A DNA stretch of 64,000 bases from NCBI GenBank assembly GCA_945874535.1, contig CAMCGZ010000005.1:29276-93275 (forward strand), written 5' to 3'. The position numbers were made by a program, and so were the translations under genes. This document shows positions 17,240-42,338 of the stretch, one piece after another. Under the pieces are notes generated by a model. The model ran no database searches. It was not told the origin of the DNA and saw nothing but the letters and a program-made list of their open reading frames with translations. Position 1 is the stretch's first letter, and every line of letters starts with the position of its first letter. Origin of the DNA: Bdellovibrio sp. ZAP7. Its GTDB lineage: Bacteria; Bdellovibrionota; UBA1018; CAIMNF01.

Positions 17240-17326
17240 GAGTGCCTCCGGGGGCGGGGTTTCAGCCACAGGCTAACTCATTTCAGTTATTAAGGAAAGA
17301 TGCCGAAGAGCTGACGGGAGATGCAC

Positions 17327-18250
17327 ATGAATGCGTTGATCGAGTACCGCACATTGGTTCTGTATGCCGGCTACGCCCTGATCGGTTTGGCAACGTTCAT
17401 CCTCGGGAACATGTTGCTTTCCGAGCAGGAGAACATGAATGCGAGCGAGAATCTCCGTCAGCTCGACGGGAAGAAAACCTCGAACGACTTCGTCCGTCTC
17501 ACCCGTCCGTTTTTTTCGCAGTACATTGTTCCCGCCATCCGGAGCAAATCCCGATTTGATGAAGCAAGGCTGAAATACAGGCGTAAAATCATCAGCGGCG
17601 GTCTCAAGGATGAACTCACTGCCGACGAATTCATCGCGTTCAAGATCATGCTCGTGATGATTTTTCCAATTGTGGGTGGTTTTGTCCGTGCTCTCGATCT
17701 CGCGGACATCCCGAACTATGTGATGCTCTTCCTTCCTGTCATCGGCTACTTCTATCCAGATTTCTGGGTGAATGGCCGGATCAAGGTCCGTCACGGTCAA
17801 GTGATCAAATCCATGCCCTTCGTGGTGGATCTGCTCGCATTGTCCACCGAGGCAGGCCTCGACTTCATCGGTGCAATCCAGAAAGTGGTCGAGAAGGCCA
17901 CGCCCGGACCGTTCATAGACGAAATGGAACAGGTCTTGAAAGAGATCAAAGTCGGTTCTTCGCGTTCCGAGGCACTCCGTGAAATGGCCTTCCGGATCAA
18001 CCTACAGGAGGTCAATTCCTTCGTCGCGGTCTTGTGCTCCGCCGATCAAATGGGGGCCTCGATCGGAAAGGTCCTCCGCCAGCAATCGGATCAGATCCGG
18101 ACATTGCGTTTCGTCCGGGCCGAGAAAGCCGGTGCGCTTGCCACTCAAAAGTTGATGTTCCCGACATTCGCTCTGATCCTTCCGGCGATTCTGATCATGA
18201 TGCTGATGCCGTTCGGTTTACAAGCCTATATGAACGGGGGAGGCGGCTGA
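17327..18250 (+). CDS. tadC: Type II secretion system F-family inner-membrane protein (TadC-like)
   Basis: T2SSF-domain sequence PFVVDLLALSTEAGLDFIGAIQKVVEK...SEALREMA and C-terminal TM helices. ATG 17327 has GGGAG 6 nt upstream; the track start is 17321. Confidence 0.8.
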   Translation: MNALIEYRTLVLYAGYALIGLATFILGNMLLSEQENMNASENLRQLDGKKTSNDFVRLTRPFFSQYIVPAIRSKSRFDEARLKYRRKIISGGLKDELTADEFIAFKIMLVMIFPIVGGFVRALDLADIPNYVMLFLPVIGYFYPDFWVNGRIKVRHGQVIKSMPFVVDLLALSTEAGLDFIGAIQKVVEKATPGPFIDEMEQVLKEIKVGSSRSEALREMAFRINLQEVNSFVAVLCSADQMGASIGKVLRQQSDQIRTLRFVRAEKAGALATQKLMFPTFALILPAILIMMLMPFGLQAYMNGGGG

Positions 18251-18615
18251 TGCGCGAACTCCGGATCGTCCGCCAGCAGGATGGAGTGGTGGTGGCCCAC
18301 CGGGCCCGCGTCGCGGACGGTTTTATGAGTCGTTTGAGAGGATTGATCGGGATCACCGAGTTTCCGGAAGGGGAAGGCTTGCTTTTTCCCCGTTGCAACA
18401 ACATCCACATGTGGATGATGAGCATCCCGATTGATGCGGTCTTTCTCGGAAAGTGCGATTCCGGCTGGAAGGTGATGAGTACTCACCCCTGTTTGAAACC
18501 CTGGAAAATCCTTCCTGTCGGGAACGCGAAAGCCGAGGACGTGCTCGAGCTTCCGGTTGGAACGGTCGATCGACTCAAACTCCGTAACGGGGAGGTGCTA
18601 TGCATCGTCTCGTGA
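18250..18615 (+). CDS. DUF192-domain protein
   Basis: The pattern GFMSRLRGLIG...GLLFPRCNNIHMWMMSIPIDAVFL...VLELPVG matches the DUF192 (COG1430) signature. ATG 18250 overlaps the tadC stop (TGATG); the track ORF's N-terminal extension to 18034 lies inside tadC. Confidence 0.7.
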   Translation: MRELRIVRQQDGVVVAHRARVADGFMSRLRGLIGITEFPEGEGLLFPRCNNIHMWMMSIPIDAVFLGKCDSGWKVMSTHPCLKPWKILPVGNAKAEDVLELPVGTVDRLKLRNGEVLCIVS

Positions 18616-20267
18616 TTGTCGCCGGTCCGAACCGCGGGAGCGCCTTTTCTCTGATCGAAGGTGAGAACACGATCGGACGTCAGATGGACAACCACATCGT
18701 GCTGACCTCTTCGAAAGTTTCGAAGCGGCATTGCGCTTTGTTGGTGACCACCCAGGAAGTCATCTTGAGAGACGAGGGAAGCACCAACGGCACCTTTGTG
18801 AACGGTGCGCTCGCACGGCGCCACACCATGAAACCCGGAGACAAGCTCGGAGTCGGGGAGTTCGTTCTCGAACTCGTCCGATCCGGGGTTCCAGCTCAGA
18901 TGTCCACGGGCCAAACCGGCTCGTTTCCGAATCCGCTCGACGGGGGAATGCTCCCGTCGAATCCCTTCGAACTAACGGGAGGGGCGGGCGCCCTGTCCAT
19001 TCCGGGAGCCGGGTCGGCACCCGTGCGTTCGGGACCCGCGAATCTACAGGAGGCCAAATTCGATGACCTTGCTCCCAAACAGGAGCTCCCCGAGGATCTT
19101 CCAGGAAAATTGAAGTTCCTGTTTGAAGGTAAAATCATGCCTACTTTTTACGGCATGTTGATGAAGAGCGAGTTCGGGAACCTCCTGGCCGGACTTCTCG
19201 GGATCACTCTCCTGATTTCGGTGTTCGCATCCGTCATGCCCATGGAGAACATGGCTGAGCAGGGGATCCAGCGTGAAGCGAGGATCCGGGGAACCGTATT
19301 GGCGAGGGAGGTCGCCGACCGCTACGCCCCGAATTTTGTCAATCACACCGAATCCCAGATCGACTTTTCACTCCTGACTCAGGAGGAAAGCATCAAGATC
19401 GTGGCACTTCTCAATATGGACCTCAATATTGTGGCCCCGCCGTCCCGCTTGGGACAGTTGTTCTCTGTCGGTGGTGAGGCGGCCTTTGCCCGAAAAATGA
19501 TCAAGGAATACCGGGAGGGCCGGGAAAAAGGCGGAGGAATGTTCCTCGACGCCAACACCTATGTCCACATCGAGCCCATCAAGGCTGCCGATCCGCGGAC
19601 CTACGCCAATGAGGTGGTCGCTCTGGCACTGGTGTCGATCGATTTTTCAAGGAATATGGTGACGGCGGGCGGTTTGGAAATCGCCTACGGGTCTGCGATC
19701 ATTTACACGGCGATCATCGGGTTGTTGTTCTATTTCATCTTGCTTCGACTGATCCACAAGCCCTATGAGGTCATGAACGACGACCTCGACCAGGTGCTCA
19801 GGGGTGAAATCCCCAGGGTGACCAAGGAGTTCAAGGTGGGGAACCTGGAAAAACTGTGGGACAACGTCAATGCCGCGGTTCAGAGGATGGGCAAGGGTGA
19901 GTCTTCCGGAGACGAAGGCGCGGTGATGTGGGATCAGGAATTCGCTCCGTGGCTCGCAGTCACCGAGATGGGCCAGATGGGACTCATCGGGTTTGACTCG
20001 AACCTCGTACTCATGACAGTCAATCCGTTCTTCTCAGAACTGAGCGGCATCCGGTCCGACTCCGTGGGGCAGACCCTGGGTCAAGTCGCTGATCAGGCGA
20101 TGAACTCGCTCGTAACCGAATTGAAGGCGAATGCCGAGCGCTCGGGGAACCGTACCGCAACCGACAAGTTCGAGTTTCAGGGGATCGATTATTCCGTTGT
20201 TGGGACCCTCGTCGGTCCGAAAGACCAGGCGGGTATCGCACTCCTGTTCAGAAAGAAGGAAACCTGA
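18600..20267 (+). CDS. FHA-domain membrane signalling protein (FHA - TM - extracytoplasmic domain - TM - HAMP-like - PAS-like C-terminus), no output enzyme domain
   Basis: FHA motifs IGRQ...SKRHCAL...STNGTFVNG. Hydrophobic helices LLAGLLGITLLISVFASV and IIYTAIIGLLFYFILLRLI. HAMP-like HKPYEVMNDDLDQVLRGE. GGAGG SD before the ATG. Confidence 0.8.
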   Translation: MHRLVIVAGPNRGSAFSLIEGENTIGRQMDNHIVLTSSKVSKRHCALLVTTQEVILRDEGSTNGTFVNGALARRHTMKPGDKLGVGEFVLELVRSGVPAQMSTGQTGSFPNPLDGGMLPSNPFELTGGAGALSIPGAGSAPVRSGPANLQEAKFDDLAPKQELPEDLPGKLKFLFEGKIMPTFYGMLMKSEFGNLLAGLLGITLLISVFASVMPMENMAEQGIQREARIRGTVLAREVADRYAPNFVNHTESQIDFSLLTQEESIKIVALLNMDLNIVAPPSRLGQLFSVGGEAAFARKMIKEYREGREKGGGMFLDANTYVHIEPIKAADPRTYANEVVALALVSIDFSRNMVTAGGLEIAYGSAIIYTAIIGLLFYFILLRLIHKPYEVMNDDLDQVLRGEIPRVTKEFKVGNLEKLWDNVNAAVQRMGKGESSGDEGAVMWDQEFAPWLAVTEMGQMGLIGFDSNLVLMTVNPFFSELSGIRSDSVGQTLGQVADQAMNSLVTELKANAERSGNRTATDKFEFQGIDYSVVGTLVGPKDQAGIALLFRKKET

Positions 20268-20270
20268 TCC

Positions 20271-21326
20271 ATGATTCGTGACAAGGTCTTCCGATTCAAC
20301 AAGGCCGAGGTTCCCCGCCAAGCGGGTGAATTCGCGCGCTTGCGGGTCATCAAGGGCCCCGATGTCGGAGCGACTTTTGTAGTCAAGGAGTCCACCTTCA
20401 CTGTCGGTCGGGGTGAGACCGTGGACATCATTCTGGCCGATCCTAAGTCTTCAAGAAGTCATGCCCGGATCGAATTCACCTACGAGGGATGGCTCGTGAG
20501 TGATCTCGGTTCGGCGAACGGTATCTTTTATTCCGGTGAGTTCGTTCGAAAGTTCAAGATCAAAAGCGGAGACCACTTCACCGTCGGTGACAGTGTCCTC
20601 GAGTTCCTGATGAGCCGGGAGTCCGATCGTGCCTTGATGGCCCCGGTCAAAGAAAACCGGGATGTCGAACGTCTCGATGTTGCGCTTGCCCAGCAGAAGG
20701 TCAAGGTCAAGAATATCTCCAGGCCCGTGGCCGGAGTTCAGAAGAAGAAGCAAGAAAAGCGGAGTCCTCTTCTTTTGGTGGCGATTCTCCTCGGTGTTGC
20801 AGGGTATGTCTATCCGGACGAGGCCCGGCCGCTGCTTGAGGAGCTCGGACTCGGCATGATTGCCGACTTTCTTCCTGAGACCCCGAAATCAAAGATCGGG
20901 AAAGCCAAAAAGGCAGGCAAAGACTCCGAGAAAAAAGACAATGAGGTCCGGGATGTCGCGTCGCTCGCTCCTCCGAGCGTGACCCGTGAGGTGGAGAGGA
21001 CGGCAGATCAGCACTTCGCACTCGGGTTCCGCGAGTATACTGCGGGGAACTATTTGCGTGCCAAGGAGGCATTCGAGCTGGCGCTCCAGGTCAATCCGCA
21101 CCACGGGCGGGCCCGGTATTATCTGATGCATGCAGATCATGAGAATCGCGAGGAGATCCGGAAGATCGTCGATTCCGCGCGGATTGCGAAGGAGTTCGGA
21201 CGTACGCGTAAGGCGATCGGATTGTATGAGACTGCGATCCGTCACCTGTATTATGATCGTGAGAATCCTTTGTATGTCGAATGTGAGGCGGCTTTGAAAG
21301 ATCTGAAGAAAGTGGAGGCACAATGA
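20271..21326 (+). CDS. FHA-domain protein with one TM helix and C-terminal TPR-like repeats
   Basis: FHA motifs VGRGE...SRSHARI...SANGIFYSG. TM helix LLLVAILLGVAGYVY. TPR-like FREYTAGNYLRAKEAFELALQVNPHH. Confidence 0.8.
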   Translation: MIRDKVFRFNKAEVPRQAGEFARLRVIKGPDVGATFVVKESTFTVGRGETVDIILADPKSSRSHARIEFTYEGWLVSDLGSANGIFYSGEFVRKFKIKSGDHFTVGDSVLEFLMSRESDRALMAPVKENRDVERLDVALAQQKVKVKNISRPVAGVQKKKQEKRSPLLLVAILLGVAGYVYPDEARPLLEELGLGMIADFLPETPKSKIGKAKKAGKDSEKKDNEVRDVASLAPPSVTREVERTADQHFALGFREYTAGNYLRAKEAFELALQVNPHHGRARYYLMHADHENREEIRKIVDSARIAKEFGRTRKAIGLYETAIRHLYYDRENPLYVECEAALKDLKKVEAQ

Positions 21327-23572
21327 GCGGATCATTGCGTCTCGAAGTTTTTCAGAACGGCGAGCTCCTCCGGACCATTCCATTCGATGGCCAGGAACTT
21401 TGGTTCGGCAGGGACGAGGAGTGCATGATCCGCCTTGATGATCGGGCGATCTCCCGCAAGCATGCGCTGATCCGATCCACTTCAAACGGAATCGAGTTCG
21501 AGAAGAAGTCCAAGTTCGGGATGGCGCGACTCAACGGAAAAGAGACCGATCACGCTCTGATACAGGGGGGTGAGCGGCTCGAACTCGGGTCATTTGAAAT
21601 CCGTTTTGTGAAAGAGGGGACCGGTCAGACCAAAGCGGTTCAGGAGGTTCAAACCACTTCACCGGCGTTGATGACAGAACCTGCGATCACCGAAACTGCT
21701 CTCCCCGAAGGGGAAGGACTGGATTCCGCAACGCCGGAAGAAAACCCGTTCGGTAGCGCTTCGCCGGAAGGAGAAGCCTTCTCCTCCGGGGCGGGGGACC
21801 CGTTCCAGACACCGGAACAAGGGCCGGCATCGTCAGGGGCTACCCGGAGCTTCGATTTCGGCGAAGTCGATCAGGATGGCGCCACCCGGGTGTTCAAGAG
21901 CCCTTCGCGATCCATGAAACCGATTCTGGAGTTCGGTGACGGAACCGCGAGTATGGGGTTCTACGAGATCGTGGACGCTGAGATCGCGATCGGACGATCC
22001 CAGAAATGCCATGTGGTCCTTGAGGACAAACGTTCTTCAAGGAAGCATGCGATCATCCTCCAGAGAAGTGAGAAGTATTTTTTGAAAGATCTCGGTTCCG
22101 CGAACGGAACCCTCCTGAACGGTGAGCGGGTCGGCGAACAGGAGTTGCATAGCGGAGATATCATCCGGATCGGGGATACCCAGTTCACCTTCAAAATGGT
22201 GCAGAGCGACTACGAGCAGAAAAAATCGGAGTTTTTCCAGGTTCCCCAAGAGCCAGAATCGCCTGTCATGGCTGATGGATTTCCGGCTTCGGTGGCGCAC
22301 GCCCCCCTGACCGCGATGCCTGCTCCCGCAATGGGAGGAGGGTTCCCAGCATATACCCAGGAACTGCTCCAGTCCGGCCCCGAGATCGCCGAACCGGTCG
22401 CACCTGACTTCACGGTTCCGGAAGAGGAGACCCAGACTTTCCTTGGCCGGCTGATCCAGCGTTACCGGATGCTGAACACCAAACAGCAGGTGATTTACGG
22501 TCTGGTGGTGCTGGCAGGGATCTATTTCATTTTTGATGAGCCGCCGGCCCCGGTCAATGCGGTCGACCCCGTGGCAGAACAGAAAAAAGCTTTGAAAAAG
22601 GCCGAGAAAAAGCCGGGAGGCGGCGTCACCTACGAGATGCTGACCAAGGATCAGAAGGATTACGTCGACGCCCAGTACGATCTCGCTTTCGAACACTACA
22701 AGAATCGCGATTACGATAAGTCCCTCTTCGAGCTCGATAAGATCTTCAAGATCGTTCAGGATCACAAACGTGCCCGCGAGATCGAAACCTATGCCAGAGA
22801 GGCCAAGCGGAGGCTGGAGGCGCAGGAAGAAGATCGGAAGCGAAAGGAACAGGAGCGCCAGTCCCGCCTGAAGCTGGAAGAGCTGTTGAGTCGATCCGGA
22901 AGTTTGATGGAGGAAGGGAAGTACGGCGAGGCGGAAGAATTGTTCCCCGAGATCGAGATTCTCGAGCCCGAGAACGCAGCAGTTTCGGCCTGGAGGAAGA
23001 AAATCCTCGAAGAAAGCGAGAAACTCAAAGTCGTGGAGGAGAACCGGAAGCGTCTGGCCGCCGTTCTTTCGAAGGCCAAGGCGGATGTCGAGGCAGCTGA
23101 GGACTTTTTCAAAGATAAGCGGTATGTCGATGCGCTCGAGATTCTGGACGATGTCGTGGAACGGACGGATCTCGATGCAAAATATTCAAAGCAGGTCGAA
23201 ACCCGGATCAAGGATATCGAAAAAGTGATGGCATCCGAGCGAGATCCGCATATCGAAAGTGGAAAGCGTTTCGAGGCCGATGGCAAGCTCGGAGAGGCTC
23301 ATAAAGAGTACAAAGCGGCCATCGCCATTGACCCGTCCGACAGCGAGGGTCCTGCAGGGATCAAGAGGATTCAAGGCCAATTGAATTCGATGGCGAAGGC
23401 CATCTATTCCGACGGGGTGATTGCCGAAGGGTTCGGGGATTATGATGTCGCCGAGAAAAAATACCGCGAGGTGATCGATACCGTCCCGGCAGATAATTCC
23501 TACCACGTCAAAGCGAAGGCCCGATTGAAGGTTTTCTCCACCTTGCGCAAGGCGCAGGAGGGCGGGCGATGA
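21323..23572 (+). CDS. Tandem-FHA membrane protein with long coiled-coil/TPR C-terminal region
   Basis: Two FHA domains: FGRDEE...SRKHALI...RLNG and IGRSQK...SRKHAII...SANGTLLNG. TM helix VIYGLVVLAGIYFIF. Charged coiled-coil segment (EAKRRLEAQEEDRKRKEQERQ) and TPR-like repeats. ATGA overlap with the previous gene. Confidence 0.8.
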   Translation: MSGSLRLEVFQNGELLRTIPFDGQELWFGRDEECMIRLDDRAISRKHALIRSTSNGIEFEKKSKFGMARLNGKETDHALIQGGERLELGSFEIRFVKEGTGQTKAVQEVQTTSPALMTEPAITETALPEGEGLDSATPEENPFGSASPEGEAFSSGAGDPFQTPEQGPASSGATRSFDFGEVDQDGATRVFKSPSRSMKPILEFGDGTASMGFYEIVDAEIAIGRSQKCHVVLEDKRSSRKHAIILQRSEKYFLKDLGSANGTLLNGERVGEQELHSGDIIRIGDTQFTFKMVQSDYEQKKSEFFQVPQEPESPVMADGFPASVAHAPLTAMPAPAMGGGFPAYTQELLQSGPEIAEPVAPDFTVPEEETQTFLGRLIQRYRMLNTKQQVIYGLVVLAGIYFIFDEPPAPVNAVDPVAEQKKALKKAEKKPGGGVTYEMLTKDQKDYVDAQYDLAFEHYKNRDYDKSLFELDKIFKIVQDHKRAREIETYAREAKRRLEAQEEDRKRKEQERQSRLKLEELLSRSGSLMEEGKYGEAEELFPEIEILEPENAAVSAWRKKILEESEKLKVVEENRKRLAAVLSKAKADVEAAEDFFKDKRYVDALEILDDVVERTDLDAKYSKQVETRIKDIEKVMASERDPHIESGKRFEADGKLGEAHKEYKAAIAIDPSDSEGPAGIKRIQGQLNSMAKAIYSDGVIAEGFGDYDVAEKKYREVIDTVPADNSYHVKAKARLKVFSTLRKAQEGGR

Positions 23573-24297
23573 GTACGGCGAATCGTTCTCGACTTCCCTT
23601 GCGGTTTGCCGAGGGCTTCCAGATCCAGGGGGATGCCCCGGTTCAGGAGGATTATTTTGAACTCAATCCCGATAGGGGGATTTACATTCTGGCGGACGGG
23701 TTCGGTGGGAGCCTCGGTGCCCGGGTTGCAGAGACCGTGGTGAAATCCATGCGTCAGTATCTCGAGCATGAGGCCGGGGATCTCGATGCGACCATGCCTT
23801 TTGAACTCAGGCCCTATTTTTCGCTCGCTGGAAATGTTTTGTTCAATGCGGTCGCCTTTGCCAATCAAAAGATCCTCGAGATCAACCGAGGCAGGAACTG
23901 GCAGGACTCCGGTGGGGCAAGCGTGGTCGCGGGCTATCTGGAAGGAAGGTTGCTTTCAGTGGCAAGGGTCGGTGCCTGTCGCTTGCGGCTCAAACGAGCC
24001 GAGCAGCTGAAAGAGCTCATTCCGGCCAGGAGTCTGCTCAGGCAAACCGACCCGATGAGCGAAGAAGGACCGGGTGATGCCGTGCCGCTCATGAGTTTCG
24101 GTACGGCACGCTCCCTTGAACCGGAAATGACCGAGCTCGAGCTCAGGACCGGAGATCAGGTGTTTTTTGAAACGGGTGGGGTGCGTCAGGTCTGGCGTCA
24201 GAAAATTCACGCTATCAATGATCCCCATGGACTGAAAGACGTATTGGAATCCTCGAATTCTCCTGGAAATGCGTCGATGATTTGGCTTGGCTTTTAA
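23569..24297 (+). CDS. PP2C-family Ser/Thr protein phosphatase (short, single domain)
   Basis: ILADGFGG metal-binding motif, GGASVVAGYL...VGACRL, 242 aa. ATGA overlap with the upstream FHA gene. Confidence 0.75.
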   Translation: MSTANRSRLPLRFAEGFQIQGDAPVQEDYFELNPDRGIYILADGFGGSLGARVAETVVKSMRQYLEHEAGDLDATMPFELRPYFSLAGNVLFNAVAFANQKILEINRGRNWQDSGGASVVAGYLEGRLLSVARVGACRLRLKRAEQLKELIPARSLLRQTDPMSEEGPGDAVPLMSFGTARSLEPEMTELELRTGDQVFFETGGVRQVWRQKIHAINDPHGLKDVLESSNSPGNASMIWLGF

Positions 24298-24306
24298 TTA
24301 TACGAG

Positions 24307-24339
24307 CCCTGTGTAACAATCTACACAGGGGGCCCTGTG
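24307..24339 (+). promoter_or_regulatory. Perfect 9-bp inverted repeat plus third complementary copy, covering the SD and GTG start of the first flp pilin gene
   Basis: The main repeat is CCCTGTGTA (24307-24315), loop ACAATC, TACACAGGG (24322-24330). CCCTGTG recurs at 24333-24339 and includes the GTG start at 24337. The AGGGGG SD lies in the 3' arm. Confidence 0.55.
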
Positions 24340-24528
24340 AGCCAGAAACGGAAATCCGGACAAGCGGTGATCGAATATATCCTGCTCCTGAGCATGGTCG
24401 TCGGGATCATGGTGGCGTTTTTGCGCACATTGAACGGGTCATTCGACAAGGCGGTGCCGAGAATGGGTGGCACCATTGAGCGCCAGCTCCGGACAGGCGC
24501 AGCCTCTGCGGGAGTGTGGCGAAAGTGA
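24337..24528 (+). CDS. flp: Flp/Fap-family type IVb pilin
   Basis: 63 aa. Class III leader with Flp processing motif SG/QAVIEYILLLSMVV (G/XXXXEY followed by a hydrophobic helix). Confidence 0.8.
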   Translation: MSQKRKSGQAVIEYILLLSMVVGIMVAFLRTLNGSFDKAVPRMGGTIERQLRTGAASAGVWRK

Positions 24529-25859: not shown

Positions 25860-26716
25860 TGAATAGCAGGGCAATGACATTATCATTGGTGATGGCGGGT
25901 ATCGCCGTTTTCTTCGTGATGAGCTCCGTCTCGAGTATCGAGCAGAGTGCCACCATGAAATACGGAGACGAGGTGACTGTCCTGGTTGCCAAGCAGGATA
26001 TCCGGGAGATGGCCACCATTCTGGACGGCATGGTTGAAGCCAAGTCCGTGCCGAGGAACTTTATCGAGCCGACCGCGGTCAAGTTCGACGGCAAGCTCGA
26101 CGTAGAATCGGTCGAGGGCGCCAAATCCTATTCCATACAATCCAAAAGAATCGTGGGTAATGTTGCGATCGTGGCGATCAAGAAAGGAGAGCAGCTGACG
26201 CTGAACAAAATCACCGAACCGAGCATGCGGACCGGCCTCGCTCCCCAGGTGACTCCGGGTAAACGCGCCATCGCCGTGCCCATCGACGAATCGACCAGTG
26301 TCGCGAAGCTGGTGAAGCCGGGAGACCGCGTGGATGTGATCGCGGTGGTCCAATCGATGGGGGTCGGTGGTCGTGAAGTCAAGACCGCGAAGACGGTGTT
26401 TCAGGATGTCGTGATTCTCGCCGTGGGCCGCTCCATTGCGAACAATGTGGCCCGCCGGGTGGACGTCGATATGGGCGGAACAGCCCGCGTCCGTTCCTTG
26501 ACCGAGTACGACGGCTACAGTTCGGTGACTCTCGAACTCGATCCGGTGCAAGCCCAATTGGTGGCTGCCATCTACACAGATAACTCCAACAAGCTGATTC
26601 TCTCGCTCCGGAATAATGATGATGCCGATCGGGTGGCCATCAGTGCGCCATCCCGTGCGACCGATGTGCTGTCCGATAGTCAGCGTTTGCCGGCGAGTGG
26701 TGGAGGTCTAAAGTGA
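25856..26716 (+). CDS. cpaB: Flp pilus assembly protein CpaB/RcpC
   Basis: N-terminal TM anchor. A SAF-like segment is followed by an RcpC-like beta-rich region (RAIAVPIDESTSVAKLVKPGDRVDVIAV). Sits directly before the secretin gene. Confidence 0.75.
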   Translation: MMNSRAMTLSLVMAGIAVFFVMSSVSSIEQSATMKYGDEVTVLVAKQDIREMATILDGMVEAKSVPRNFIEPTAVKFDGKLDVESVEGAKSYSIQSKRIVGNVAIVAIKKGEQLTLNKITEPSMRTGLAPQVTPGKRAIAVPIDESTSVAKLVKPGDRVDVIAVVQSMGVGGREVKTAKTVFQDVVILAVGRSIANNVARRVDVDMGGTARVRSLTEYDGYSSVTLELDPVQAQLVAAIYTDNSNKLILSLRNNDDADRVAISAPSRATDVLSDSQRLPASGGGLK

Positions 26717-26717
26717 T

Positions 26718-28412
26718 ATGTTGAAGGCTTCTGTTTGGCTCCTGCTCAGCTTGATTTCCATTCCGCTCGAGACTCAGGCCCAACAGGAGGCGGCATCCCC
26801 GACTCCCGCTGAAGGCGAAGTCGAGGAGCGGAAGGAACGGAAGCGGCGCCGGGCGCCCGAAGAGAAAGCTTCTTATACCCGTTCCCGATATTCGGCGGAT
26901 CGTAGCGAGGCGGAGGCCGATCGTCGGGCCCTGCTCCTGACGGCCGGCGTTGACAAGACCATCGACCTCGAAGCGAGTCTAAAGATCACCGGTGACGCCA
27001 CACAGAGGGTCCTGGTGGGTAACCTGTCGGTTGTCAATGTGTTGCCCGTTCTGGTCGGTGATCGTAAGCAATTGATCTTCAAGCCCGCCGCAGTGGGGGA
27101 GACGAACGTGACCATCCGGGATGACTCCGGTAACGTCCGTCTGATTTTCGAGGTGATCGTCGCCCAGGCCAATCAGATCCGCAATCTCGAAAGATTGCGG
27201 GAGAATCTGAAAGAGGTGGAAGGCATCACGATCAATATCGAGGAGAAGAATATCGTTCTTCGCGGAGAAGTGCTCACTACAGCCGATTTCAGCACGGTGA
27301 ACAATGAGCTTGCGGGAGAGCTCTATGGTAAGGAAGTCATCAACAAGGTGAAGATGTCGCCCGTCACCCTGAATTTCCTGGCCAAGCGGATCGAGCAAGA
27401 CATCCAGGTATTCGCTCCGACCGTCCGGGCATCCGTGATCAACGGTAAGATCATTCTCGAGGGCACCGTCGACAGCGAGGGAGCCAAACAACGGGCTTAC
27501 AATCGCGCATATTATTACCTTCCCATGGTCCGGTTCAAAGAAAACGTCGGAAACGACCAGAATGTGATCGAGATGGAGCAGGACAAGAAGACGTTCATCC
27601 TCCAGTCTGACATCACCGTCCAGGCGCCACCTCCCAAGCGGGAGAGCAAGCTCGTCCGCATGACTGTTTACTTTGTCGAATTGGGCAAGGACTTCCTGAA
27701 AGCTTTCGGATTCAAGTGGCAGCCCGGATTCGCCTCGGACCCTAGCATCAGCGTCGGGACCACCGCGACCGGTGGGGTGGGAACCAATAGCGGTGGTTTC
27801 ACCTTCAGTGGAACCTTGACTTCACTGTTCCCTACGATCAGTTCTCCTCCGTCCAATGCCTCCTATGGCCGGATCATGAAATCCGCGACCATCATCGTGA
27901 AGAACAAGGAAGAGGGAGAAGTCCGGGATCAGGTGCAGGTGCCCACCCAGTCACTCGGCCAAGGCGGTACTCAGGGTAACGGTCAGGCCGTACCGGTGGG
28001 CTTCCACATCAAAATGACACCCACCATTCTCGATGGCCAGGATGTCGATGTGAACGTGGACATCGAGCAGAGTAACCAGGTCGGGAAGGGCGTGGGAGGG
28101 ACTCCGATCGTCGCCAGTCACAAGGTGAAAACCCGCTTGTACCTGAAATCAGGCGAAACCGCAGCATTGACCGCGGTGAACAAGCAAGACGTGGCCACAT
28201 CGTTCAATCGGGACGATGCCGCTCCGGGGGCTTTCCAGCAAACCCAGGGGGGCGCCCAGACCAAACCGCTCTTCAGTTTCCAGCGGTCGAAGAACATGTC
28301 GAAGTCGAGAGGTCAGTTTGTGATTTTCGTCAATCCGCAGATCATCGATAACGCCTCCGAGGGCACGGAAGACTTGAAGAAGAACTTCCGGATGACATCG
28401 AGCACTCGCTGA
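26718..28412 (+). CDS. cpaC: Tad secretin CpaC/RcpA
   Basis: Signal peptide, BON-like module (ITINIEEKNIVLRGEV), and a C-terminal secretin domain ending ...GQFVIFVNPQIID. Confidence 0.85.
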   Translation: MLKASVWLLLSLISIPLETQAQQEAASPTPAEGEVEERKERKRRRAPEEKASYTRSRYSADRSEAEADRRALLLTAGVDKTIDLEASLKITGDATQRVLVGNLSVVNVLPVLVGDRKQLIFKPAAVGETNVTIRDDSGNVRLIFEVIVAQANQIRNLERLRENLKEVEGITINIEEKNIVLRGEVLTTADFSTVNNELAGELYGKEVINKVKMSPVTLNFLAKRIEQDIQVFAPTVRASVINGKIILEGTVDSEGAKQRAYNRAYYYLPMVRFKENVGNDQNVIEMEQDKKTFILQSDITVQAPPPKRESKLVRMTVYFVELGKDFLKAFGFKWQPGFASDPSISVGTTATGGVGTNSGGFTFSGTLTSLFPTISSPPSNASYGRIMKSATIIVKNKEEGEVRDQVQVPTQSLGQGGTQGNGQAVPVGFHIKMTPTILDGQDVDVNVDIEQSNQVGKGVGGTPIVASHKVKTRLYLKSGETAALTAVNKQDVATSFNRDDAAPGAFQQTQGGAQTKPLFSFQRSKNMSKSRGQFVIFVNPQIIDNASEGTEDLKKNFRMTSSTR

Positions 28413-28430
28413 GAAAGGGACCAAGAATCA

Positions 28431-30581
28431 ATGGGACACATCATCGCAGTGGTAGGGGGAAAGGGAGGGGTCGGGAAGAGTGTCTTTGCCGCGAACCTCG
28501 CGATCGCCTACCAGATGAACTTCAAGCAGCGCTCCCTGATCATCGATCTCGACTTTCAGAGTCTGGGTGATCAAAACATCATTCTCGGCCTGAATCCTCC
28601 CAAGAATATCGTGGATGTGACCAAAGCCCAGGTGGGGACCTGGGATCCGAAGGCGATGACTCCGTTCCTTGCCAATTCACCGCAGGGTTTCAGTTTCATT
28701 GGAGCTCCGCGCGAGGCAGCCCTGGCCAAAGACATCGATCTGGACGGTCTCGGAAAGTTTCTGAAGGCGGCCGTCGGTGTTTTTCCATGGGTCGTGATCG
28801 ATTGCGGGAATGGCACCGATCCTCATGCATTGAAGGCGATGGAGCAAGCCAGCCTCATTTTTGTGGTGACCACACCTGATGTGATCGTCTTGAATCAAAC
28901 CCGGCGGATTCTCGGAAAGGTACAGGAACTCCTGTTCCCGCAGGAGATGGTGCAAGTGGTGGTGAACCGATACTCACCCAACAATGTGATCAACCCCCAG
29001 ATGATCCAAAAGAGTATCAACAAGGCTCCTTATTTCGCCATTCCCGAGGATGCCGCCACGTGTGAGGCCTCGCTTACCAAAAGCCAGCCCTTCACCATGG
29101 TGAATCCTGGAGCTGCGATTTCGAGAGCCTTCTCGGATCTGGTTCGTCGCATGGATCAGAGTAAGATGCTCGATCAACTGGCCAAGCTGAACAAACCGAC
29201 CGGCGTCGCTCAAAAGGCCGGTTCTGCTGCTGTTGTCGCTGTTGACGGTGGCGGTGAGAACGGGGGGTTGCTGTCTCGATCGAAATCGGCCCCGACCGAT
29301 CCCTGGACGAGCATGAAACTCCGGATCCACAAGGCACTCATCGACGTGGTCGACATGAAGAAGATGAATGTCGATGTCGCTGATTCGAAACAGCGCGAGG
29401 TCTTACGCGAAAAAACCCAAAAAGCGATTCTCGACGTCCTGGCCAAAGAGGATGTTTCGACTCTTTGCCCGACGCGTGAACTCAGAGCCCAGTTGGTCAA
29501 AGAGGTGTTGGATGAGGCGCTCGGTCTCGGACCGCTCGAGGACCTCCTTGCGGATGACTCGGTGACCGAAATCATGGTGAACGCCCGGGATCAAATCTAC
29601 GTCGAACAGGGTGGTAAGCCCGGATTGTCCAGAACCACTTTTTCGAGCGAGCAGCAGATGATGAACGTGATCGAGCGGATTGTCACTCCGCTCGGACGCC
29701 GGGTGGACGAGAAAACCCCCTATGTCGATGCCCGTCTCGCCGATGGATCACGGGTACACGTGATCATTCCTCCACTTGCGCTGAGGGGGCCCACGATCAC
29801 GATCCGAAAATTCCCCAAAAAACGGATCATGGCCTCGGACTTGGTGAAGTTCGGTTCCATGACACAGGAAATCGCAGATTTCCTTCGAGCCTGTGTCGAG
29901 GCCAAACTCAATATCGTGGTGTCGGGGGGCACCGGCTCCGGTAAGACGACTTTGCTGAATGTGCTTTCAAACTTCATTCCGGCGACCGAACGGATCATCA
30001 CGGTTGAGGATGCTGCCGAACTCCAGCTTGGACAGGAGCACGTAGTCCGGCTCGAGACCCGACCGAAGAACATCGAGGGCGAGGGTGAGGTCTCCATCCG
30101 GGATCTGATCAAGTGCTGTCTCCGGATGCGGCCGGACCGGATCGTGGTCGGGGAGTGTCGGGGAGGAGAGGCCATGGACATGCTTCAGGCGATGAACACC
30201 GGCCACTCCGGATCGCTGACCACCGTTCACGCCAATAATCCTAGAGAATGCATCGGACGACTGGAGACCCTGGTGATGATGGCGGGAATGGGTTTGCCGC
30301 TCAAGGCCATTCGCGAGACGATTGCCAGTGCGGTCAATCTCATCATCCAGCAGTCCCGTCTGACTGACGGGACTAGGAAAGTGACTTATGTCTCCGAGGT
30401 ACTCGGGATGCAGGGCGAAACCGTGACGATCCAAGACATCTTCATCTACAAGCAAGAGGGTCTGGATAAGAACCGTAAGATTATTGGCAGATTCGTGCCC
30501 ACCGGCTTCATTCCGAAATTCGTGGAAGAAATGGAAGCAAAGGGCATGAAAATCTCACGGGGCCTTTTCGCGGTCAAATAA
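28431..30581 (+). CDS. Fusion protein: N-terminal MinD/ParA-type (TadZ/CpaE-like) ATPase domain + C-terminal CpaF/TadA secretion ATPase
   Basis: The deviant Walker A VVGGKGGVGKSV sits at residues ~8-19. After a ~60-aa Ala/Gly-rich linker comes a full CpaF-type domain (Walker A SGGTGSGKTT, VGECRGGEA, TGHSGSLTTVHAN). One uninterrupted 716-aa frame. Confidence 0.85.
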   Translation: MGHIIAVVGGKGGVGKSVFAANLAIAYQMNFKQRSLIIDLDFQSLGDQNIILGLNPPKNIVDVTKAQVGTWDPKAMTPFLANSPQGFSFIGAPREAALAKDIDLDGLGKFLKAAVGVFPWVVIDCGNGTDPHALKAMEQASLIFVVTTPDVIVLNQTRRILGKVQELLFPQEMVQVVVNRYSPNNVINPQMIQKSINKAPYFAIPEDAATCEASLTKSQPFTMVNPGAAISRAFSDLVRRMDQSKMLDQLAKLNKPTGVAQKAGSAAVVAVDGGGENGGLLSRSKSAPTDPWTSMKLRIHKALIDVVDMKKMNVDVADSKQREVLREKTQKAILDVLAKEDVSTLCPTRELRAQLVKEVLDEALGLGPLEDLLADDSVTEIMVNARDQIYVEQGGKPGLSRTTFSSEQQMMNVIERIVTPLGRRVDEKTPYVDARLADGSRVHVIIPPLALRGPTITIRKFPKKRIMASDLVKFGSMTQEIADFLRACVEAKLNIVVSGGTGSGKTTLLNVLSNFIPATERIITVEDAAELQLGQEHVVRLETRPKNIEGEGEVSIRDLIKCCLRMRPDRIVVGECRGGEAMDMLQAMNTGHSGSLTTVHANNPRECIGRLETLVMMAGMGLPLKAIRETIASAVNLIIQQSRLTDGTRKVTYVSEVLGMQGETVTIQDIFIYKQEGLDKNRKIIGRFVPTGFIPKFVEEMEAKGMKISRGLFAVK

Positions 30582-30599
30582 CCCCAGTATCATGAGGGT

Positions 30600-31475
30600 A
30601 TGAGTTTCGCGATTCCTCATTGGCTGCTCGGCCTCGTCGTATTCGTCTCGGCGTTGTTGGTTGCCTATCAATTCTCGGGAAGGATTCTCGATTGGGTGAG
30701 ATTCCACTCCATCGGAACCCGGGATTACATCGCAGACAAACTCAAGTTGATGATGATCGATCTTCCTCTCGAGAAGATCCTCATGTACCAGGTCGGGTTC
30801 TCTTTCGGTCTGGGAGGAATGGTGTTTTTGGCTTGTTTGCCGAATTTCGCGGCAGGCGGCGTACTGGGCGGAGTGGTGGCGATCGCAGCTTGGTTTCTTC
30901 CGAAGCCGATCGTGAACGTTCTTTATCAGAAACGTGTGGATCGTTTCGTCGAGCAAATGGTCGATGGACTCGGTCTCATGTCCAACGGCATGAGGTCGGG
31001 GCTTTCGGTCGCCCAGGCGATGGGACTGGTCGCTCAGGAGATGCCGGATCCGATCAAGTCGGAATTCGAATTGGTGCTGAATCAGAACAAGCTCGGTTCC
31101 TCACTCGAGTCCGCATTTATCGATTTGTCCAAACGGGTGATCGCGGATGAAGTGGAAATGTTCGTGACCTCGGTGGTGATTCTGAAGGAGACCGGCGGAA
31201 ATTTGGCGGAAACCTTCGATACCATCACCACCTTGATTCGCGAGCGGATCAAAGTGGAAAATAAGATCAAAGCGATGACCGCTTCCGCGTTCTGGCAAGG
31301 GATGATCTTGCTCGGAGTTCCGCCCTTCATGGGTTTGACTCTTTCCCAGTCCGATCCTGAACTGATGAGGCCCATGTTCGAGACCTGGCTCGGTTGGTTG
31401 GGTCTATCTACCGTGGCAATTTTGATGATCGTGGCTTATTTTGTAATCAAGAAGGTGACAAAAATCGATGTTTGA
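30600..31475 (+). CDS. tadB: Type II secretion system F-family protein (TadB-like)
   Basis: T2SSF sequence VTSVVILKETGGNLAETFDTITTLIRER, with N- and C-terminal TM helices. Confidence 0.8.
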   Translation: MSFAIPHWLLGLVVFVSALLVAYQFSGRILDWVRFHSIGTRDYIADKLKLMMIDLPLEKILMYQVGFSFGLGGMVFLACLPNFAAGGVLGGVVAIAAWFLPKPIVNVLYQKRVDRFVEQMVDGLGLMSNGMRSGLSVAQAMGLVAQEMPDPIKSEFELVLNQNKLGSSLESAFIDLSKRVIADEVEMFVTSVVILKETGGNLAETFDTITTLIRERIKVENKIKAMTASAFWQGMILLGVPPFMGLTLSQSDPELMRPMFETWLGWLGLSTVAILMIVAYFVIKKVTKIDV

Positions 31476-31485
31476 GGTGAGAAAA

Positions 31486-33177
31486 ATGACCAGAGTTTTG
31501 ATCTTGTTGGGAGCATTGCTTTCGGTGTCCAGTGCATTCGCCCGCGCGGATGTGAGTCTTCGGAACGGAAACTTTTTCGTGTCACTGAGAGACATCTCTT
31601 ATCCGGGGGGGATGGAGCCCAAGATCGAGCGGGTGTACAACTCGAAATCCGATTTTCACGGGATGTTCGGATACAGTTGGGGCACCGAATACGAAACGCG
31701 CCTGTCTTTCGATCCTGACGGAAGCCTCCTCCTGACCGAATACGGTGGAGGTGCGAATATCCGTTTCAGTCCAAAGACCTATTCCGCGAATGACGTCGAT
31801 GAAGGGATCAAGTCAGTGGTGAGTGCCGCCCAGAAAGCGGGAACCATCACCAGTGCCAAGGGGCTTGAGGAATACCGGAAGCGTTTGAAAGAAAACCCTG
31901 AATTCAGGGCCAAACAGTACGCGATCTTTGTGAACAAAGGAAGCCTGCAGCGAAAAGCGATTGTGGATGGAACCCAGTTCATTTCGACCGATTACCAGTA
32001 CCAGTACCTCACACGCGTGAAAGGCGGGTACACGCGGGTGATGGAGGCTGGTATCATCCAGAAGTTCAATGAAGCAGGTCGTTTGGCCCAAATCATGGAT
32101 CGAAACAGGAATTTCGTGAACTTCACCTACGATACCAACGGTCGGGTCGCCCAGATGATCGACAATCAGAATCGTAAGATGAATTTCTCTTACAATCAGT
32201 TCGGTCTGGTGGAGCGGATTGTTGGCGAAAGCGGCAAGAAAGCCGAGTTCAGGTACTCAAAAGAGGGATTCCTAGTCTACAGCAAGGATGACGCCGGTGT
32301 GGAAAACACTTTCAAGTACACCGCCGATCAGTATCGCAATCTTTCAGAGATCGGATACCCGAACGAACGGAACGCCAAGGGCGAATCGAAGCGGATGATC
32401 GTGGGTTATTACGGTCCGGAAAAGAATTCGAGCGTGAAATCGGTCGTGAATCTCGACGGGACCGTGAATGAGTACGAATACGAAATCGGCGGGAAGACTC
32501 CCGGTTACTATTCGGTGCGGGTGGTGTTGAAAGACTCATCCGGTGCCAAGCTGAATGACTCCAGGTATGAGTATTTCTACAAGACCAAGCCGAGCGGGGA
32601 GGAGTTCACCGCCCGGATGGTCACCACAGTGGATGGTGAGAAAACCGAGACTGTTTACGACGAAAAACTCGGCTATCCCCTGAAGATCACCGCGAACGGC
32701 AAAACCACCACGATGGAGTACGACATGAAGGGACGGATGGTCCGTAAGGTCACACCGCTCCACACCACGACGCTCACATACGATCCGGCGGTGGGTAAGG
32801 TGTCCAAGGTTGTCAAAAAAGTGACCAGTGGAACGGTGATCTGGAGTGAGTTCGAATACGATAAGGCCACCGGGAACCTCCTGGTCGCCCGCAACAGCGA
32901 TAAAAAGCTGGTGAAGCTGATCTACGATGGTCAAGGCCGGATCAGTGCATTGGTGGATCAGGCGGGCCGCCAGCTCACCTTCAGGTACAACGAGCTCTCG
33001 AAGCCGGTCGAGATCCGGGATGCCAAGCTAGGAACCGTCAAGTTCACCTACAAGAACAGTGGCGAGGTGGACAAGGTGGACAGCAACGGGGGCGCCAGTG
33101 TTTCTGTTGAGGTGATGAGGGCTTTGCAGAGCCTGATCGACATCACCGCCCCGGCGGGCGTCACGATGTCGATTTGA
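31486..33177 (+). CDS. Secreted YD/RHS-repeat protein without recognisable toxin domain
   Basis: Signal peptide MTRVLILLGALLSVSSAFA. Many YD-type repeats (FTYDTNGRVAQMIDNQNRKMNFSYNQFGLVERI, TYDPAVGKVSKV, IYDGQGRISALVDQAGRQLTFRYNE). No PxxxxDPxGL core-end motif. GAGG SD 8 nt before ATG 31486. Confidence 0.8.
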   Translation: MTRVLILLGALLSVSSAFARADVSLRNGNFFVSLRDISYPGGMEPKIERVYNSKSDFHGMFGYSWGTEYETRLSFDPDGSLLLTEYGGGANIRFSPKTYSANDVDEGIKSVVSAAQKAGTITSAKGLEEYRKRLKENPEFRAKQYAIFVNKGSLQRKAIVDGTQFISTDYQYQYLTRVKGGYTRVMEAGIIQKFNEAGRLAQIMDRNRNFVNFTYDTNGRVAQMIDNQNRKMNFSYNQFGLVERIVGESGKKAEFRYSKEGFLVYSKDDAGVENTFKYTADQYRNLSEIGYPNERNAKGESKRMIVGYYGPEKNSSVKSVVNLDGTVNEYEYEIGGKTPGYYSVRVVLKDSSGAKLNDSRYEYFYKTKPSGEEFTARMVTTVDGEKTETVYDEKLGYPLKITANGKTTTMEYDMKGRMVRKVTPLHTTTLTYDPAVGKVSKVVKKVTSGTVIWSEFEYDKATGNLLVARNSDKKLVKLIYDGQGRISALVDQAGRQLTFRYNELSKPVEIRDAKLGTVKFTYKNSGEVDKVDSNGGASVSVEVMRALQSLIDITAPAGVTMSI

Positions 33178-33249
33178 TCAATTGAAATTGTTTAATATTG
33201 ACCATGCTTCTGTGGGCTGGTTAAACTGAATGGGAGAGGTAAGGTTTTC

Positions 33250-33465
33250 ATGAAAGCAATCCTGGTTCTGGGCTTCCTTCTGGTCGGTACGAATTCTGCA
33301 TTTGCCGCGGCGAAGGCTGAAAACCAGTCGAGCACCTGCTGCAAGACCTGTGCGGTGGATCAGGGGGGCTGTGCGCCAGACGCCGGCAATAACCCTGACC
33401 AGGTGGTGGTTCAGGCTCCCGGCGACAAGGTCGAGAAGCCGGGTGATTCCAGCGAAGGTAAGTGA
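33250..33465 (+). CDS. 71-aa secreted Cys-containing peptide of unknown function
   Basis: Signal peptide MKAILVLGFLLVGTNSAFA. Mature ~50 aa with CCKTC...GGC and a low-complexity acidic tail. GGGAGAGG SD. Confidence 0.55.
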   Translation: MKAILVLGFLLVGTNSAFAAAKAENQSSTCCKTCAVDQGGCAPDAGNNPDQVVVQAPGDKVEKPGDSSEGK

Positions 33466-33549
33466 GTCTTCGCCTCGTTTTTCATTGAGTAACGCGCATC
33501 GTCTTCGCTAGGATGAGGGGGATTTCCCTAAATCTAGTGCGGAGTGTTG

Positions 33550-42315: not shown

Positions 42316-42338
42316 TTTCCTGTTCTGTCATGAGGAAA

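Follow-up and report, generated by a model that had tools for sequence, protein, structure and literature searches.

A Kil-like Tad pilus gene cluster from an uncultured member of the Bdellovibrionota joins two known Bdellovibrio operons and probably serves prey attachment or invasion

A cluster of 16 consecutive open reading frames (ORFs) was investigated in a 64,000-nucleotide stretch of contig CAMCGZ010000005.1 of Bdellovibrio sp. ZAP7 (hereafter the window). The ORFs (g01 to g16) lie on the + strand at 17321-33465 and encode, in order, a TadC-like protein, a DUF192 protein, three FHA-domain proteins, a PP2C-like protein, two Flp pilins, two TadE-like proteins, CpaB, CpaC, a MinD/TadZ-like::CpaF fusion, TadB, a YD-repeat protein and a small secreted peptide. 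Two known Bdellovibrio operons are joined here as one operon-like cluster. An earlier note made from the sequence had described sixteen same-strand genes in this order, which the ORFs and their domains confirmed. It had placed the beginning of the cluster at 17327; the tadC gene is there, but its first ATG is located at 17321 and 17327 is the third codon. Neighbouring genes overlap by 1-16 nt (TGATG, ATGA, GTGA and similar) or lie at most 18 nt apart. Only two gaps are larger, 39 nt before the first flp gene and 72 nt before g16, and the junction coordinates thus agree with the earlier description. The G+C content was 53-59%. Pfam searches bore out the T2SSF, DUF192, FHA, RcpC, secretin, MinD::CpaF and YD/RHS assignments.

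The pilus core is encoded by g07 to g14. The Flp-type pilin g07 (24337..24528, +) has the leader ...KSG/QAVIEY followed by a hydrophobic helix, with homologues in all relatives. The second Flp-like pilin, g08 (24516..24803, +), is longer (95 aa), has a hydrophobic helix after its leader ...RG/QAVVEY, is likewise conserved in relatives and matched Flp1_like at E 0.067, below threshold. The TadE-like minor pilin g09 (24800..25345, +) combines a G/QAVIEF leader with an N-terminal helix and matched TadE at E 0.043, short of the threshold, and the second TadE/TadF-like minor pilin g10 (25335..25859, +) has a G/QSILEV leader and a single N-terminal helix and is conserved in relatives. The flp and tadE-like calls of the earlier note are supported by leaders, helices and orthologue matches, but not by Pfam in the window itself: g07 to g10 gave no Pfam match above threshold, and their orthologues in relatives match Flp1_like and TadE. 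Seef et al. tentatively paired Bd0114, which occupies the position of g10, with KilA; the single membrane segment and the pseudopilin leader rule out g10 as a prepilin peptidase.

The CpaB/RcpC/KilB protein g11 (25856..26716, +; RcpC 4.9e-20, SAF) is 36% identical to the Bdellovibrio protein at the Bd0113 position and 27% identical to Myxococcus KilB. The secretin g12 (26718..28412, +), of the CpaC/RcpA/KilC type, matched Secretin (8.8e-12), BON (7.8e-8) and T2SS-T3SS_pil_N (1.2e-4) and gave no Secretin_N match, the N0 domain being judged from Pfam. The 716-aa protein g13 (28431..30581, +), counterpart of Bd0111, is a MinD/ParA (TadZ-like)::CpaF/TadA ATPase fusion, with CbiA (1.1e-15, aa 5-218) and T2SSE (2.7e-63, aa 364-646) in one ORF. 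Its MinD-like part comprises the N-terminal 250 aa, has the deviant Walker A motif GKGGVGKS and lacks a receiver-like domain. It is the only T2SSE ATPase in the cluster, and no FHA match was found at its N-terminus. The database contains more than 120 clusters of relatives at 73-97% identity to g13, and the named ones are metagenome-assembled genomes (MAGs) of Bdellovibrionales/Bdellovibrionota. The TadZ-TadA fusion, listed before as a peculiarity of this locus, is real but common to Bd0111 and other Bdellovibrionota: it was a single ORF in all Bdellovibrionota loci checked, whereas in loci from other phyla the TadZ-like gene was separate and upstream of cpaF (11/11). The TadB/KilG-type platform protein g14 (30600..31475, +; T2SSF 1.1e-17), counterpart of Bd0110, had KilG as its best Myxococcus match (35% identity, 4e-49). 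The positions of g01 and g14 place tadC 12 kb from tadB, as had been noticed.

Among the components that define a Tad (type IVc) system, the cluster contains Flp pilins, a TadA/CpaF ATPase, two T2SSF proteins, a secretin, RcpC/CpaB and a TadZ-like domain, and it lacks a prepilin peptidase (TadV/CpaA), the TadD pilotin and TadG. Pfam analysis of the scanned large ORFs of the window (cluster and flanks) gave no match to Peptidase_A24, TadD, TadG or a protein kinase, and no RcpB family was detected in the cluster ORFs; the reported absence of TadD and TadG was thereby upheld. A tblastn search of the 64-kb window with the A24 peptidase of a relative (locus L081; loci fetched for comparison carry L numbers) also gave no Peptidase_A24 homologue. 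The missing peptidase is less of a peculiarity than was claimed, for TadV is already absent from all Bdellovibrio genomes (PMC5430801). The prepilin peptidase may be encoded outside the window.

The head of the cluster begins with g01 (17321..18250, +), a TadC/KilH-type inner-membrane platform protein with three hydrophobic segments and a T2SSF match (4.7e-16), counterpart of Bd0470. It was 49-56% identical to the Bd0470-like tadC of L084/L085, and its best Myxococcus match was KilH (39% identity, 4e-47). The start of the DUF192 gene g02 (18250..18615, +; Pfam DUF192 6e-14), at the position of Bd0471, overlaps the tadC stop (TGATG), and the tadC-DUF192 pairing is also found in Bdellovibrio-like contigs. 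The FHA protein g03 (18600..20267, +; FHA 1.3e-15, Yop-YscD_cpl 1.4e-16), at the position of Bd0472, has two hydrophobic segments (aa 195-213 and aa 359-377) that enclose about 145 residues, followed by a HAMP-like and PAS-like C-terminal region. HAMP_2 matched after the second segment at E 0.03, below the curated Pfam threshold; PAS matches were found in 10/29 members of the family, and the family profile matched the PAS domains of phytochrome and DosP. The g03 family comprised 146 representative clusters at E<=1e-30, and g03 aligned over its full length with the L085 protein at 24% identity.

The protein g04 (20271..21326, +), at the position of Bd0473, consists of an FHA domain (2.6e-14), a hydrophobic segment and TPR repeats (TPR_2 E 1.9e-5, below the Pfam cut-off), and its family profile matched g05 with E 1.1e-26. 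The counterpart of Bd0474, g05 (21323..23572, +), has two FHA domains (3e-30), a hydrophobic segment and TPR repeats, is related to MXAN_4648 and aligned over aa 6-744 with the 675-aa 2xFHA protein of L084 at 21% identity. There are thus four FHA domains in three proteins, and the GR...SxxH...NG signature is intact in those of g03 and g04 and in the second FHA domain of g05. AlphaFold2 models of g03 and g06, made from a single sequence without an alignment, reached a predicted local distance difference test score (pLDDT) of 36-38, too low for the models to be of use.

The sixth gene, g06 (23569..24297, +), lies at the position of Bd0475 and encodes a PP2C-related protein that has lost two of the four metal-binding aspartates; it was assigned by orthologue match and motif reading. 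Its own sequence gave no Pfam match even at E=10. The L082 orthologue (40-45% identical) matched PP2C_2 (E 2.7e-7) and the solved PP2C tPphA and has all four catalytic motifs. A PP2C (PPM) phosphatase is recognised by four metal-binding acidic positions in the motifs xED, DGxGG, (S/T)DG and DN. In g06, QED and DGFGG are kept, but the (S/T)DG motif reads ETGG and the DN motif reads GNAS, so that it falls short of the four positions. Among 67 family members (the window protein and 66 homologues, L082 and L089-L153), ED and DGxGG were nearly invariant, while the (S/T)DG aspartate was present in 35/67 and the DN aspartate in 32/67. Both aspartates are gone from g06 and from all relatives at least 50% identical to it, and these proteins are still 50-88% identical to one another; more distant members keep all four positions, and the Bdellovibrio-like counterpart, the last gene of the bd0470-type operon, has lost every PP2C motif. 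Because two of four metal-binding aspartates are lost, in the closest relatives too, g06 is probably a pseudophosphatase. The earlier PP2C call thus holds for the family, through the L082 orthologue, but probably not for the activity. The distribution of the motifs fits a repeated conversion of this PP2C-fold family to a non-catalytic protein, that is, recurrent pseudoenzyme evolution.

At the distal end, g15 (31468..33177, +) encodes a secreted protein of 569 aa with a signal peptide, a DUF6531 domain (1.6e-12) and YD/RHS repeats (RHS_repeat 3.4e-17), counterpart of Bd0109. By position and composition, the last ORF, g16 (33250..33465, +), encodes a secreted, disorder-prone peptide of 71 aa with a Cys motif, the positional counterpart of Bd0108. 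BLAST of g16 found no similarity to the equivalent ORFs, even in a relative with 90% ATPase identity. A signal-peptide ORF of 70-102 aa followed the YD gene in every locus examined; the mature part of these peptides consists of 71-83% small or polar residues, and most copies have CxxC.

For the comparison with Bdellovibrio, chromosomal loci were retrieved with a piece of B. bacteriovorus CpaF taken from the Seef et al. supermatrix. The window proteins were compared by tblastn with seven Bdellovibrio-type loci, in five of which the downstream ORF was inspected. The order of the matches showed that g07-g16 are collinear with the Bdellovibrio TAD/hit locus, bd0119-bd0108. The identities were 33-38% for cpaB, 26-28% for cpaC and 39-43% for tadB, and g13 was 48% identical to the Bdellovibrio ATPase over aa 17-714; since the alignment spans both parts, the MinD-like domain is fused in the Bdellovibrio ATPase too. 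The gene after the Bdellovibrio tadB was 30-31% identical to g15 over the full length (E 1e-69 to 1e-79), and it is followed by an ORF of 92-102 aa whose product has a signal peptide and a CxxC-type motif and ends in a disorder-prone tail. In B. bacteriovorus, bd0110 is tadB, bd0109 encodes the YD/RHS protein and bd0108 the hit-locus peptide; bd0108-bd0111 are co-transcribed, Bd0108 binds Bd0109, and the two are periplasmic partners that affect piliation (PMC3818213). The suggestion in the earlier note that the hit locus sits at the edge of an Flp cluster was correct, with tadB, the YD gene and the small secreted ORF matching bd0110-bd0109-bd0108.

The first six genes, g01-g06, match bd0470-bd0475 gene for gene, in the order seen in L084/L085 and in the published operon composition (PMC12034629). 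This comparison was made not with the HD100 sequences but with the Bdellovibrio-like contigs L084 and L085, whose proteins show 74-84% identity to the Bd0470 fragment. Their order is tadC, DUF192, FHA (509/579 aa), FHA (375 aa), 2xFHA (675 aa) and a 221-aa protein, then unrelated genes, and g03 and g05 align full length to their proteins at 21-24% identity. In B. bacteriovorus, bd0470-bd0475 form one operon of tadC, the hypothetical genes for Bd0471 and Bd0472, the FHA proteins Bd0473 and Bd0474, and Bd0475; Bd0473 is predicted to bind Bd0475, and Bd0474, whose two FHA domains are cytoplasmic and whose TPR domain is extracytoplasmic, binds Bd0075 (PMC12034629). Seef et al. mapped KilH to Bd0470, far from the TAD locus. 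Transposon mutants in bd0470 and bd0474 did not kill prey, and the bd0474 mutant still attached to prey and failed in prey rounding (PMC6561027).

The join of the two gene sets recurs in relatives. The full 16-gene order was found in L082, L086, L087 and L088 (73-90% ATPase identity), of which L082 (GCA_001770165) and L088 (GCA_018266375) are both labelled Bdellovibrionales bacterium. A metagenome scan seeded with the PP2C-like protein at the join gave 65 loci, a sample that favours the clade in which the PP2C-like motifs that served as search patterns are preserved. Among those with at least 1.5 kb of downstream sequence, the FHA module was joined to flp-tad in 33/35; among those with at least 1.5 kb upstream, a g05-like gene immediately preceded the PP2C-like gene in 35/36. 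All of g01-g15 occurred in the window order in 12 metagenome loci, and the join was kept across ATPase identities from 69% to 97%. In the 80 loci fetched around CpaF homologues (12 Bdellovibrio-type loci and others mainly from other phyla), no FHA gene was found within 10 kb at E<=1e-5 (0/80). Conserved synteny of FHA and tad genes in relatives, which the earlier note had made a test of its reading, was therefore found.

Variation around the join was also observed. In L081 (74% ATPase identity), the FHA module is not beside the tad genes, and a Peptidase_A24 prepilin peptidase gene (5456-6052) lies between flp and tadE; both features therefore vary independently within the clade. Unrelated genes, one for an aminotransferase of Cys/Met metabolism (L087, 12199-13392) and one, on the opposite strand, for a Peptidase_C1 protein (L088, 12185-13051), are inserted between the ATPase gene and tadB, so by comparison of these loci the ATPase/tadB junction appears to tolerate insertions. 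Outside the Bdellovibrionota, Tad loci of Shewanella and Eremiobacterota have DUF192 immediately after tadC (order cpaF-tadB-tadC-DUF192), and a Clostridiales Tad locus has a similar order, with DUF192 downstream of tadB and tadC itself not detected there (L017, L027, L030, L074 and L077; about 3 kb downstream of cpaF). Judging from these arrangements, tadC and DUF192 are an old pair; its presence in other phyla suggests that it became detached from tadB in the Bdellovibrionota and stands today at the head of the FHA module. In this Tad subfamily, DUF192 appears to be a conserved accessory gene that has gone unrecognised.

The relation to the Kil systems of Myxococcus, which are rich in FHA proteins and lack TadD, TadG and RcpB (PMC8460266), was examined through synteny read from the M. 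hansupus cluster 2 locus. This cluster contains pilins, KilB, KilG, KilH, an FHA protein (491 aa, YscD-like) and an FHA-TPR protein (581 aa). In hhalign, the g05 family profile matched the 581-aa protein, the MXAN_4648 orthologue, from end to end with a probability of 99.7% (E 5.9e-26, 481 columns), and the g04 family profile matched it with E 1.4e-20 over 282 columns. A chimeric Bdellovibrio and Myxococcus KilH query recovered only Myxococcota among the top 120 matches. The statement of the earlier note that Kil machines carry FHA proteins and have relatives in the Bdellovibrionota thus proved sound: the KilH-FHA-FHA_TPR order, the KilH and KilG best matches and the g05 profile match all agree with it. 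The proposed BLAST of the products against Kil and Bdellovibrio proteins likewise gave tadC-KilH at 39%, tadB-KilG at 35% and the order bd0119-bd0108.

A neighbour-joining tree of the ATPase, a single protein (229 columns, 500 bootstraps), was constructed from 18 sequences of the Seef supermatrix, 14 from fetched loci and the window. The window grouped with L081 and L082 (100%) and then with Halobacteriovorax/Bacteriovorax (84%), followed by the Bdellovibrionota MAGs L013 and L016 (55%). It was far from Caulobacter and Agrobacterium. The Kimura distance from the window ATPase was 0.57 to Bd0111, 0.63 to KilF, 0.64-0.66 to Shewanella and 0.96 to Caulobacter CpaF. Placement of CpaF on a phylogeny, set beforehand as a check, therefore put the window within the Bdellovibrionota and far from Caulobacter but did not recover a deep Kil clade.

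Taken together, the locus probably represents one complete predator-associated Kil-like Tad (type IVc) pilus machine of an uncultured Bdellovibrionota member, with prey attachment or invasion as its likely role. The Kil-like, hit-locus-like reading is supported because the cluster is collinear with bd0119-bd0108 and bd0470-bd0475, the join is recurrent, the KilH-FHA-FHA_TPR order is shared with Kil and g05 matches its Myxococcus counterpart; the conjecture of the earlier note is supported in this respect by Bdellovibrio collinearity and Kil linkage. From the mutant phenotypes in B. bacteriovorus and the analogy with Myxococcus Kil, the machine likely serves contact-dependent attack, that is, prey attachment or invasion, and not simple surface adhesion.

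In the proposed mechanism, the MinD::CpaF ATPase would polymerise the two Flp pilins on the TadB/TadC platform, the two TadE-like minor pilins would prime the Flp fibre, and the fibre would exit via the CpaB-CpaC secretin channel. The three predicted inner-membrane proteins would extend FHA domains into the cytoplasm and TPR or sensor-like domains into the periplasm, and one would also bear a HAMP-like and PAS-like module on the cytoplasmic side. Together with the non-catalytic PP2C-fold protein, they may form an envelope-spanning scaffold or checkpoint, which could couple an envelope or contact cue, read by phosphothreonine binding, to pilus assembly or use. The periplasmic YD protein and its small disordered CxxC partner may modulate pilus status, like Bd0109/Bd0108. 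A kinase and a prepilin peptidase would act in trans, encoded elsewhere in the genome.

A more speculative proposal, which we put forward tentatively and hold to be possible but doubtful, is that g01-g06 form an integral envelope-spanning module for contact sensing and gating in predator-type Tad machines. They would then be the missing upstream signalling cascade postulated for Kil, with g03 as a sensor protein (FHA domain, membrane segment, periplasmic part, second membrane segment, HAMP/PAS-like region) and the PP2C-fold protein as a phospho-independent adaptor for the FHA proteins and not an enzyme. If so, the fused operon would show at the genomic level that the products of bd0470-0475 and of the TAD/hit locus belong to a single machine.

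Several points weigh against the reading of the locus as a predatory Kil-like machine. By sequence comparison, g03 is not homologous to MXAN_4649 (FHA491) beyond the FHA domain, which alone aligns, and orthology of the two was ruled out. The FHA::ATPase fusion that marks KilF was not found in g13; the B. bacteriovorus-type ATPase likewise lacks an N-terminal FHA domain, yet was counted as Kil-like by Seef et al. In the small ATPase-only tree, all Bdellovibrionota grouped at 44% support only, M. xanthus KilF grouped with gamma- and beta-proteobacterial sequences, and a monophyletic Kil clade with Myxococcus and Bradymonas was not recovered. The HAMP and PAS assignments of g03 are below the Pfam thresholds and are leads, not findings. 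No protein kinase was found in the scanned ORFs of the window, and two catalytic aspartates are missing from the PP2C-like protein; phosphothreonine regulation is therefore inferred only from the intact FHA motifs. The phospho-threonine signalling module claimed earlier was accordingly overstated, although its FHA proteins and their motifs are there. Co-transcription is predicted from gene layout, with promoter and terminator scans at background level. The host is uncultured, and a function is assigned to the locus through orthology only.

Other explanations of the locus were weighed. Tad pili are adhesins in most studied bacteria, and the cluster might encode an ordinary adhesive Tad/Flp pilus for surface or biofilm life in a possibly non-predatory member of the Bdellovibrionota, with the FHA module as a lineage-specific regulator of piliation. 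No core component of a Tad system is missing, the window itself contains nothing that proves predation, the lifestyles of many Bdellovibrionota MAG lineages are not established, and the cpaF-tadB-tadC-DUF192 core is common to Shewanella and other non-predators. We nevertheless consider this unlikely, given the gene-for-gene match to two operons in which B. bacteriovorus mutants are defective in predation, a YD and small-peptide pair of the hit type that is known only from the Bdellovibrio switch between predation and host independence, and an FHA-TPR linkage common to Myxococcus Kil and absent from the 80 sampled CpaF-homologue loci.

The same YD gene could instead point to a secretion or toxin-delivery locus, in which the YD/RHS protein is an Rhs toxin exported via the secretin and the small ORF encodes its immunity protein. 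DUF6531 and RHS repeats are present in g15, small immunity genes usually follow Rhs toxins (PMC3818213), and Seef et al. considered that Kil might act like a type II secretion system (PMC8460266). Yet g15 is only 569 aa long and has no C-terminal toxin domain recognisable by Pfam, the small ORF has a Sec signal peptide and a disorder-prone composition unlike those of cytoplasmic immunity proteins, and Bd0108/Bd0109 were shown to be periplasmic piliation partners and not a toxin/antitoxin pair (PMC3818213), which makes such a locus very improbable. It is scarcely credible that the FHA/PP2C-like module has no functional link to the tad/hit cluster and lies beside it by chance: the module starts with tadC, whose product is a platform protein that this machine cannot do without, the join persists in 33/35 loci over ATPase identities of 69% to 97%, and the KilH-FHA-FHA_TPR adjacency is found in a different phylum as well. 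These facts outweigh the separate loci of Bdellovibrio and of the relative L081 and the 39-nt gap, with its possible promoter or hairpin, at the join.

For a predator-associated Kil-like Tad machine, the value of the locus lies in its arrangement. A Kil-like Tad/hit system of the Bdellovibrionota is already known; what is new is the one-piece arrangement seen here. In B. bacteriovorus, bd0470-0475 and the Flp/TAD-hit locus were studied separately, and they are joined here and in dozens of related metagenome contigs. The gene neighbourhood is thus evidence, of a genomic kind, that would tie the FHA/TPR/PP2C-like proteins to the predatory Tad machine. Among the papers in the library searched, none names both Bd0474 and Kil, and none both Bd0111 and TadZ. 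The sensor-like protein g03, the probable pseudophosphatase and the MinD-like domain on the ATPase are targets for the question of how prey contact triggers Kil/Tad assembly.

Non-coding elements were found at the two larger gaps and at the cluster end. The 39-nt gap before flp (24298..24336, +) contains a perfect 9-bp hairpin, CCCTGTGTA-N6-TACACAGGG, together with the motif TGTGTAACAAT (fold -18.2 kcal/mol, z -2.4). Part of the hairpin coincides with a motif, TGTGTAAYAAT, that several relatives conserve. L086, L089 and L090 retain the hairpin; L087 and L096 retain just the motif. This element could be an RNA-stabilising or processing stem-loop or the extended -10 of an internal pilin promoter. 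A promoter-like site was found at 33198-33227, inside the gap before g16, and a consensus scan placed a terminator-like hairpin with a T run at the cluster end (33452..33473, +). In the promoter and terminator scan, the counts were not above the shuffled-sequence expectation; because such sites are no commoner than in shuffles, the terminator call is merely suggestive. Rfam and tRNA scans gave no matches.

The cluster is flanked by housekeeping genes, upstream, on the opposite strand, those for ABC permeases and a GH3 enzyme and downstream lipA-E2-E3-lipB; the maf/yggS/proC/divIVA genes that flank the Bdellovibrio bd0470 locus are absent from the window flanks. A CNNM-CNNM-Lon block (40076-44874, -) is syntenic with L082 (16923-21747) and L086 (20626-22163), and in L082 the lipA-E2-E3-lipB block is missing between the pilus cluster and the CNNM-CNNM-Lon block. 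Upstream of Lon, a second, stand-alone ParA/MinD-type ATPase gene (46656-47711, -) adjoins a DnaJ and HTH_25 gene (45979-46653). Genes for a histidine kinase and a sigma-54-dependent response regulator (48390-51513, +) lie 15 kb downstream of the pilus cluster, and this pair is a possible candidate regulator of the cluster. A stand-alone N6/N4 DNA methyltransferase gene (7387-8322, -) lies amid the housekeeping genes guaA and guaB, and no restriction partner for it was found in the scanned ORFs.

The comparison with canonical Tad/Cpa loci (Aggregatibacter, Caulobacter) showed that Flp, TadE/F-like proteins, RcpC/CpaB, secretin, TadA/CpaF, TadB and TadC are shared, as is a MinD-like TadZ/CpaE function adjoining the ATPase. 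The window differs in that TadZ is fused to TadA and has no receiver-like domain, tadC lies 12 kb upstream of tadB, TadV, TadD and TadG are lacking, and FHA, PP2C-like and YD modules are added.

Kil, the Tad-like machinery with which M. xanthus kills prey on contact (MXAN_3102-3108 and MXAN_4648-4661), and the window have in common the Tad core with a single ATPase and without TadD/TadG/RcpB, the same three Pfam domains (pil_N, BON and secretin) in KilC and g12, and several FHA proteins, with FHA and FHA-TPR genes next after a KilH-type gene. The N-terminus of KilF is an FHA domain, that of g13 is MinD/ParA-like. The Kil cluster includes the prepilin peptidase KilA and large TadG-like or tip proteins, while the window cluster has neither a prepilin peptidase nor TadG. 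In the Kil cluster 2 stretch and the published gene tables there is no DUF192 gene, PP2C-like gene or YD/small-peptide pair, and Kil is split in a different way, into two clusters.

The Bdellovibrio loci were the closest in gene content. The TAD/hit locus shares with the window, in the same order and orientation, two flp genes, two tadE-like genes, cpaB, cpaC, the MinD-ATPase gene, tadB, the YD gene and the peptide gene, and a prepilin peptidase gene is absent from both. The overall protein identities are only 26-48%, and the Bd0108-type peptides are about 92-102 aa long compared with 71 aa for g16, the common features being the signal peptide, the Cys motif and the disorder-prone composition. 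The operon bd0470-bd0475 has the same six genes as the window (tadC-DUF192-FHA-FHA-2xFHA(TPR)-small protein), and Bd0474 has the architecture of g05, with a pair of FHA domains in the cytoplasm and a TPR domain outside it. The last gene of the Bdellovibrio-like operon is without any PP2C motif, whereas g06 retains QED and DGFGG. The bd0470 operon stands alone in Bdellovibrio, flanked by maf/yggS/proC/divIVA, and is thus a locus separate from TAD/hit; in the window, the tadC/FHA operon directly precedes the TAD/hit part and is joined to flp/tad.

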